In this document: in pieces, positions 17,289 through 17,524 of the stretch | Numbering within the stretch: the stretch's first letter is position 1 | Layout of the letters: each line of letters begins with the position of its first letter | Sequence record: MK524177.1 | Reading direction: 5' to 3' (one strand) | DNA: 57,228 nt | Origin: Escherichia phage PHB10 | Notes under the pieces: model-generated | Told to the model about the DNA's origin: nothing | Databases searched by the model: none | Seen by the model: only the letters and a program-made list of their open reading frames with translations | Position numbers and translations under genes: made by a program

Positions 17289-17524
17289 ATAAATAGCTAA
17301 GTTGGCAATAACTGAGGGAGTGGTGCCGGGTGCCTCCCGGTGGAAATGATCACAGCATTCATTTCCGCGCGCTGGTTGGACACTCTGGAGAAATGTCCTG
17401 CTGAACCGCCCCTCCGCTTAGGGGGATCCACCACAAAAACGCTTTCAGAAACATCCATTCCGCAGGATGCTTAAGAAGCATATGTGCAGTATTAAGAATC
17501 TGCCACATAATCAGATGAATATAT

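Follow-up and report, generated by a model that had tools for sequence, protein, structure and literature searches.

The window (the whole stretch of DNA that was analysed, i.e., 57,228 nucleotides of Escherichia phage PHB10, sequence record MK524177.1) seems to represent an entire lambdoid phage genome of 57.2 kb in circularly permuted form. Its late genes occupy the minus strand: the left end carries those from terminase to tape measure (3995..1083) and a minor tail gene (1007..204), the right end the L-, K- and I-like genes, followed by J (54238..50789) and a gene for a tail fibre (49451..47859). Across the junction of the window, the tail genes of the two end segments (204..3995 and 47859..57104) follow the order H-M-L-K-I-J known from lambda. 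Among the loci compared, the nearest DNA relatives were Enterobacter prophages with 88–92% identity. Two distant intergenic regions of this genome share an identical short hairpin, and the genes and signals surrounding its two copies (copy 1 on the minus strand, copy 2 on the plus strand) are the following:

19580..18747, minus strand: Q antiterminator gene (PF03589)
17881..17805, minus strand: tRNA-Arg(TCT) gene; copy 1 lies 340 nt downstream
16857..16555, minus strand: holin gene
43911..44310: cspA thermoregulator leader of csp (Rfam match)
44498..44740, minus strand: ynfU, encoding a YnfU zinc protein
45927..47695, minus strand: umuDC operon

Copy 1 is part of a succession on one strand which comprises Q, tRNA-Arg(TCT), an ORF of 63 amino acids, copy 1 itself, holin, lysozyme and Rz. 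A strong intrinsic terminator (17910..17889) precedes the tRNA gene. The 63-aa ORF is overlapped by an isrI-like Rfam match at 17524..17621, which is sub-threshold (38.5 bits, gathering threshold 45), and the same stretch shows DNA similarity to the region of Gifsy-1 around its tRNA-Arg. In the early-right operon, the nin/Q region is separated from the replication gene P (31482..32168) by about 9.5 kb of metabolic or regulatory cargo (21945..31233). This cargo codes for a BD-FAE esterase, an NmrA-like protein, a gluconolactonase, a YdcZ exporter, an amidohydrolase, two LysR regulators, an aldo-keto reductase and a flavodoxin-like protein, and is unusually large for a lambdoid moron.

Copy 2 ends a plus-strand block between the integrase and the tail fibre genes and is convergent with umuDC. 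The block includes csp with its cspA-type leader and two small ORFs, with ynfU on the opposite strand. As a whole, the accessory region (42701..47695) features genes for an SRAP/YedK peptidase, csp, the YnfU zinc-protein gene and a full umuDC. The order csp, ynfU, STnc100 was also encountered in a Citrobacter amalonaticus genome, and near relatives of copy 2 were found in late regions of Enterobacter prophages.

A 19-mer shared by two intergenic regions

The exact 19-mer CACCGGGAGGCACCCGGCA occurs twice in the window, at 45783..45801 on the plus strand and at 17324..17342 on the minus strand. Re-reading of the sequence confirmed the plus-strand position given in a preliminary description, while the reverse-complement copy, which had been placed at 17314..17332, had to be shifted by 10 nt. 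Both copies contain the CCGGG-N5-CCCGG hairpin reported there, and both are indeed situated between real genes, the overlapping ORFs all being spurious. The assumption that such a match is unlikely by chance held as well: 0 of 100 dinucleotide-preserving shuffles matched the 19-mer, even with three mismatches tolerated, which rules out an origin by chance or low complexity. The homology of the two loci extends beyond these 19 nt, as the diverged flanks can be aligned pairwise (e.g., TGGTGGATCCCCCTAAGCGGAGGGGC vs. TGATGAATCCTCCTAAGCGGCAGGGC), with the 19-mer being the longest identical stretch between the two loci of about 200 nt.

Two diverged members of the STnc100 family and their distribution

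The whole window was scanned against Rfam. In this covariance-model scan both copies passed the gathering threshold of STnc100 (RF02076; 47 bits) and matched the full model from position 1 to 206:

17258..17463, minus strand: copy 1, full STnc100 match (74.1 bits, E 5.5e-14, model 1–206), comprising 30 upstream nt, core, linker and terminator
45642..45843, plus strand: copy 2, full STnc100 match (52.7 bits, E 1.6e-08)

A third STnc100 copy was not detected in the window, even at E<=0.5. Both copies accommodate the STnc100 consensus structure, an outer stem around hairpins with a terminator hairpin behind it. Given the two Rfam matches and the pairwise homology, the 19-mer is therefore to be regarded as the conserved core of paralogous sRNA genes and not as a stand-alone repeat. 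Probably, the two 19-mers constitute the best conserved part of two diverged paralogous sRNA genes of the STnc100 family, each about 170–200 nt long, in one Enterobacter-type lambdoid phage genome, each gene consisting of a 5' domain, a linker and an intrinsic terminator. The window copies are thus new, diverged members of an already known prophage sRNA family. They share the core of the helices P1, H1, H4 and H5, the linker and the terminator with STnc100, EcOnc27 and sRNA103, but are strongly diverged in sequence from the seed members of the family (E. coli, Salmonella). A search with copy 1 in the 'distant' mode of blastn against 50,697 GenBank records of phages gave no match, because the family is too diverged for its members to be recovered other than by covariance models or motif anchors.

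STnc100 is described as a multi-copy prophage sRNA, with 11 copies in strain EDL933 which are transcribed, one of them confirmed by Northern blot (PMC5331693). The family is equivalent to EcOnc27 of E. coli O157 Sakai and to sRNA103 of EDL933, both names designating the STnc100 copy 3' of stx2B; this RNA binds Hfq and makes up a convergent 'dyad' together with the anti-sRNA AsxR, and in at least eight prophages of Sakai dyads of the EcOnc27/AsxR type have the late promoter on one side and the lysis genes on the other (PMC4104026, PMC7873438, PMC12711010). Members of the family are transcribed in lysogens and occur as discrete, Hfq-binding RNAs, which are found in chimeras with a large number of mRNAs (PMC5331693, PMC4104026, PMC8550237, PMC7873438), the discrete Hfq-associated expression having been demonstrated for E. 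coli and Salmonella members only. In the genome of phage 933W the core was found about 100 nt after stx2B, which agrees with the published location of the STnc100 annotation, 75 nt past the stx2 operon. Recently, the family was also statistically linked to clinical outcome (PMC12711010). Besides, PasD1 and PasD2, two Hfq-dependent sRNAs of EPEC prophages, were tied to STnc100 by their structure and by synteny with a PF03589-type Q and holin/lysozyme genes, and a common ancestor of PasD and STnc100 was proposed (Zhu, Shabalina and Storz, 2026 preprint). According to the published descriptions, PasD1 and PasD2 are situated near Q and holin/lysozyme, and the seed regions of PasD and STnc100 are reported to differ.

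Measured against this background, copy 1 occupies the canonical place between Q and the lysis genes, as published for STnc100/EcOnc27 and as in 933W, whereas copy 2 is located in the accessory region by umuDC, between the csp/ynfU module and umuC, and not in the late region. In contrast to the EcOnc27-type dyads, which feature AsxR or AgvB as convergent anti-sRNA partner, no such partner was detected for the window copies in the scan at E<=0.5. Copy 2 exceeds the RF02076 threshold by 5.7 bits. This small margin, together with a weak U-tract and a setting outside the usual context of Q and lysis genes, could indicate that copy 2 is decaying. Other prophage RNAs were considered as identities of the repeat and rejected. 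The C4 (RF01695) and isrK RNAs gave no match in the window at E<=0.5, and both were found in Gifsy-1, which served as positive control. IpeX of prophage DLP12, which is located by the nmpC 3' end on the opposite strand, is unannotated in the K-12 stretch examined, and this K-12 region contained no STnc100 match.

The exact 19-mer was found in viral and in genome stretches, at least 120 of each, nearly all of them from Enterobacterales, including Citrobacter, Escherichia, Salmonella, Enterobacter, Klebsiella, Kosakonia, Cedecea, Pantoea, Erwinia, Rahnella and other genera, with one to three copies per genome stretch examined. STnc100-like sequences occur in 1741 of 5426 complete E. coli genomes (32%), at one to seven places each, and are absent from the RefSeq annotation. 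The element is a low-copy, accessory and prophage-borne one, neither REP-like nor mobile. A host element of the REP type without phage association, named in the preliminary description as the finding that would speak against its reading, was accordingly not what the search in viral and host genomes revealed, and two copies in the window, one to seven places in only 32% of the E. coli genomes and the contexts in prophage operons exclude a REP-like or small mobile repeat. Likewise, the suggested remnant of a small mobile repeat found no support, as both flanks belong to homologous structured RNAs whose helices covary, and the element is present in low copy number and in prophage operons. What remains of the earlier reading is a non-random, phage-associated sequence with a likely role at the RNA level; what does not is the free-standing site, as the 19-mer is the core of STnc100 copies of about 200 nt.

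In some phages and prophages (L016, 340..2066; L282; L305; L311), arrays of three to four diverged cores were observed within 1–2 kb. Two of the cores of L016 end 3 nt before tRNA genes (Arg-TCT, and one with CAU anticodon called as Met by ARAGORN), so that RNase P would set the 3' end of the core RNA there. Moreover, E. coli lambdoid phages with an STnc100 in the late region (L032, L059, L063 at 2082..2246 on the minus strand, L088, L101, L103, L220) feature a further diverged core in the early-left operon, which lies on the opposite strand and has a P1 of 21 bp and a compensatory H5 with CCUGG/CCAGG.

The structured core and its conserved hairpin

Anchored parsing of the two copies, for copy 1 backed by the covariation of the helices in 42 relatives and for copy 2 accompanied by folding and pairwise alignment, resulted in the following anatomy:

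17320..17434, minus strand: structured core of copy 1, 115 nt
17434..17429, minus strand: P1 5' strand of copy 1
17425..17409, minus strand: H1 of copy 1
17403..17399, minus strand: pseudoknot 5' strand of copy 1, CAGCA
17366..17342, minus strand: H4 of copy 1, with loop UGCUG at 17357..17353
17341, minus strand: unpaired A of copy 1
17340..17326, minus strand: H5 of copy 1
17325..17320, minus strand: P1 3' strand of copy 1
17324..17342, minus strand: 19-mer of copy 1, consisting of the last H4 base, the unpaired A, H5 (CCGGG-AGGCA-CCCGG) and the first two bases of the P1 3' strand (CA)
17261..17288, minus strand: intrinsic terminator of copy 1, GCCUGCUUGUCCGAGCAGGC followed by U8, 31 nt past P1
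45674..45805, plus strand: structured core of copy 2, 132 nt
45674..45679, plus strand: P1 5' strand of copy 2, AUGAUG
45683..45699, plus strand: H1 of copy 2
45704..45709, plus strand: pseudoknot 5' strand of copy 2, UUAACC
45756..45783, plus strand: H4 of copy 2, with loop GGUUAG at 45767..45772
45784, plus strand: unpaired A of copy 2
45785..45799, plus strand: H5 of copy 2
45800..45805, plus strand: P1 3' strand of copy 2, CAUCAU
45783..45801, plus strand: 19-mer of copy 2, identical in anatomy to that of copy 1
45810..45843, plus strand: terminator-like hairpin of copy 2, GCCCCUG-UAUAAUUG-CAGGGGC followed by UUAUUUAC, convergent with the 3' end of umuC

The P1 helices of the two copies differ by a compensatory change (GAUG/CAUC in copy 2, GGUG/CACC in copy 1). 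For copy 2, the minimum-free-energy fold recovered P1, H1, H5 and the terminator (z = -3.2). Its terminator-like hairpin aligns to the terminator hairpin of the family, has a weak U-tract and was not flagged by a simple terminator scan. A consensus scan revealed no convincing sigma-70 promoter for either window copy, which is why their transcription may depend on upstream units; many relatives feature a sigma-70-like promoter set for a start at the first base of P1 (e.g., TTGACA-18-TAAATT-6-GTGGTG).

For comparison, relatives were collected from IMG/VR by the exact 19-mer (at least 120 stretches), and a second collection was anchored on the H1-region motif GTGAATCCCCCTNNGCGG, both together containing about 140 unique elements. 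Covariation was assessed on 42 diverse cores by anchored parsing and MAFFT alignment. The common core covers 100–140 nt in the order P1 5' strand, AAU junction, H1, variable linker, H4, unpaired A, H5 and P1 3' strand. H1 of the family core contains a bulged A and a pentaloop U-N-N-G-C, while H5, a 5-bp G/C stem with the pentaloop AGGCA, is separated from H4 by the single unpaired A and abuts the 3' strand of P1 without a gap. In the alignment of the 42 cores, 92.6% of the cells were paired vs. 77.7% in shuffles, and 18 of 26 pairs showed changes on both sides. The covariation score amounted to 0.416 compared to 0.155 in shuffled alignments (0/500 as high) and 0.06–0.13 for slid partners. P1, H1 and H4 covaried strongly (6/8, 3/5 and 8/8 pairs), whereas H5 changed at only 1/5 pairs and is thus almost invariant.

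In addition, the loop of H4 finds its complement in the stretch immediately following H1, and this in more than a dozen different sequence versions, e.g., CCAGUC/GACUGG, AUCAGC/GCUGGU, CUGGUG/CACCGG and AAGGUUG/CAACCUU, copy 1 having CAGCA/UGCUG and copy 2 UUAACC/GGUUAG. In 35 of the 42 cores, the linker and H4 loop of the same sequence shared a complement of 6 nt or more, vs. 30% of mismatched partners (permutation 0/5000). Judged by this comparative evidence, linker and H4 loop form a pseudoknot. It is absent from the consensus line of Rfam RF02076, and no description of it was found in the literature.

The conservation of the 19-mer itself was gauged on 108 unique sequences anchored on the H1 motif only, because sampling anchored on the 19-mer would bias the estimate by ascertainment. 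Even so sampled, 93 of the 108 sequences contained the exact 19-mer, and the others differed at one to four positions. The H5 variants of this set include the compensatory CUGGG/CCCAG, and at other loci compensatory CCUGG/CCAGG as well as G.U variants were detected. On comparative grounds H5 is therefore a paired helix, yet its sequence is kept far more constant than pairing demands. As this invariance exceeds what pairing needs, binding of a protein at the RNA level, one of the roles considered in the preliminary description, is possible.

Downstream of the conserved core, the layout of the family is modular, with a variable single-stranded linker of 20–45 nt followed by the terminator. Of about 299 unique contexts, 56% had a terminator within 100 nt after the core, the median distance from P1 being 25 nt. 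Two further features were tried as functional parts and rejected: a small ORF (GGGAGG as Shine-Dalgarno sequence and ATG in CACCATGC) is missing its ATG in most variants, and an alternative pairing of H1 and terminator in the manner of a riboswitch is restricted to the E. coli subtype and not conserved.

Taken as an sRNA, the conserved 5' domain of about 115–130 nt would serve as scaffold or recognition module, within which H5 may be read in a sequence-specific manner by a putative conserved partner (a host protein) or may form a fixed tertiary contact, and the variable linker beside the terminator would carry the target specificity. The exact 19-mer may have been kept in both copies, while the rest drifted, because such recognition or contact of H5 fixes its sequence.

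Transcription control, other explanations and significance

The core module occurs in three settings, i.e., with linker and terminator (STnc100, PasD, EcOnc27), in early-left leaders behind a boxA-like motif, and fused to phage tRNA genes, where it lies directly upstream of these. The latter two lack a terminator and are unexplained by a pure trans-acting sRNA model. We consider it unlikely that the boxB-shaped, invariant H5 in a pseudoknotted domain of about 110 nt constitutes a free-standing module and a new RNA class, which would engage a host machine (e.g., RNA polymerase and Nus factors) over termination and from which the prophage sRNAs would have arisen as derivatives or decoys.

Quite unlikely, in our estimation, is also the related explanation that the core is a nut- or put-like cis-acting RNA which alters RNA polymerase at downstream terminators, with a boxB-like H5 and with the sRNAs as by-products, decoys or derivatives. 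H5 does have the architecture of a boxB (15 nt, 5-bp stem, pentaloop). Moreover, a divergent subclass with GCGGC-type H1, here called type B, reaches 35–41 bits against RF02076 and thus remains below the threshold, so that annotation pipelines based on Rfam should miss these cores. In 17 of 39 type-B cores the boxA-like motif RTGCTCTYNNC is located 2–4 nt upstream of P1, and none of these 17 is followed by a terminator; the motif was found in 0 of 158 terminator-bearing type-A cores, at a background of 0.75% per 35-mer. In at least six phages, whose repressors are 30–40% identical, type-B cores are flanked by the cI-like repressor (with operators and a pL-like promoter) and by the first of the early-left genes, which is the position of nutL or putL. 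Among the few ORFs checked downstream of type-B cores in two loci, no N-like protein was seen. In the L011 group a terminator follows about 20 nt past the core, ahead of the early genes, and the type-A cores are situated upstream of the lysis genes.

Nevertheless, the annotated nutL and nutR of 933W contain a P22-type boxB, GCGCUGACAAAGCGC, and not H5, although 933W carries STnc100. The 19-mer is absent from HK022, the putL and putR sites of which have no sequence in common with the core, and a second copy on the pR side, looked for by analogy to putR in phages with type-B cores, was not found. Type-A RNAs accumulate in lysogens as terminated species of about 200 nt upstream of the lysis genes, which argues against constitutive readthrough. 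Neither window copy is preceded by a boxA-like motif, and the positions of the cores are more simply explained by a moron-type cassette with its own promoter and terminator that was inserted into antiterminated operons. The divergent subclass with the boxA-like motif may have a role in transcription control.

H5 resembles the boxB of lambdoid nut sites, where N binds boxA and boxB, in size and shape, but its sequence is unlike any known boxB, that of lambda included. A boxA-like motif and the nutL position were seen in type-B relatives, whereas the window copies are not downstream of pL or pR. An identity of the window copies as nut sites was accordingly rejected on the basis of the missing upstream boxA-like motif, an H5 unlike the P22/933W boxB and the late or accessory position; an ARM-type N gene was not seen among the few ORFs checked. 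H5 as the boxB of the N protein of 933W/H-19B was likewise dismissed, as the annotated nut sites of 933W carry GCGCUGACAAAGCGC. The put RNAs of HK022 are, like the core, structured leader RNAs of lambdoid phages with two adjacent stem-loops as key feature. Still, put forms a V shape of two stems, while the core is a P1-closed four-helix structure with a pseudoknot, for which no copy was found on the pR side, and homology to put was excluded by the lack of sequence similarity and the different position.

Two side observations concern these leaders. In those of type B with the boxA-like RTGCTCTYNNC before the core (L104, 2505..2700; L011, 1790..2170; and the Pantoea/Erwinia loci L265, L270, L280, L283, L301 and L308), the conserved motif UGGAGWA comes next on the 3' side of the core, together with a covarying hairpin whose loop reads UUGCAG, right ahead of a phrog_204 gene. 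In the nutL of 933W (L244, 1615..1681), GCGGTGAAT between the annotated boxA and boxB is identical to the 9-mer made up of the type-B P1 5' strand and AAU junction, which could be a coincidence or a vestige of common ancestry.

Highly improbable is a tRNA-like element, in which P1 stacked on H5 would mimic an acceptor/T-arm and be recognised as a signal by enzymes of tRNA processing, e.g., RNase P or the CCA-adding enzyme. The contiguity of P1 and H5 on the 3' strand, with about 13 stacked base pairs, would fit such a mimic, as would the many members ending in ...GGCACCA, the four loci with a core 3–6 nt upstream of a tRNA gene and the tRNA-Arg gene 340 nt upstream of copy 1. Yet neither ARAGORN nor the Rfam tRNA and tmRNA models matched either copy, even at E<=5, the H5 loop comprises 5 nt (AGGCA) compared to the 7 nt of a T-loop, and the CCA is base-paired within P1 and not conserved (CACCGC, CACUGC and CAUCAU variants). 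Besides, adjacency to tRNA genes is rare (5 of about 299 contexts). Hardly tenable, finally, is the view of the 19-mer as a DNA-level site, either a protein operator or a short 'linker' promoting recombination between mosaic lambdoid phages: the 19-mer is invariant within mosaic, diverged surroundings and sits at module boundaries, but the flanking helices show RNA-type covariation on a single defined strand, in the same orientation as the genes nearby, the rare H5 variants are compensatory or G.U and hence neutral at the RNA level only, and RNAs of the family were detected experimentally.

With the preferred reading as a pair of paralogous sRNA genes, two STnc100 genes are added to a family which has an Rfam entry and has been investigated in EHEC, EPEC and Salmonella, which makes the repeat itself ordinary. 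The family adjoins Shiga toxin and lysis genes and occurs in a third of the complete E. coli genomes. In the small literature that mentions it, no description was found of the four-helix pseudoknotted core, the identical hairpin throughout Enterobacterales phages or the boxA-like subclass below the Rfam threshold. The remaining value lies in three features that offer handles for experiments: the invariant H5, the core with its pseudoknot and the subclass associated with boxA.
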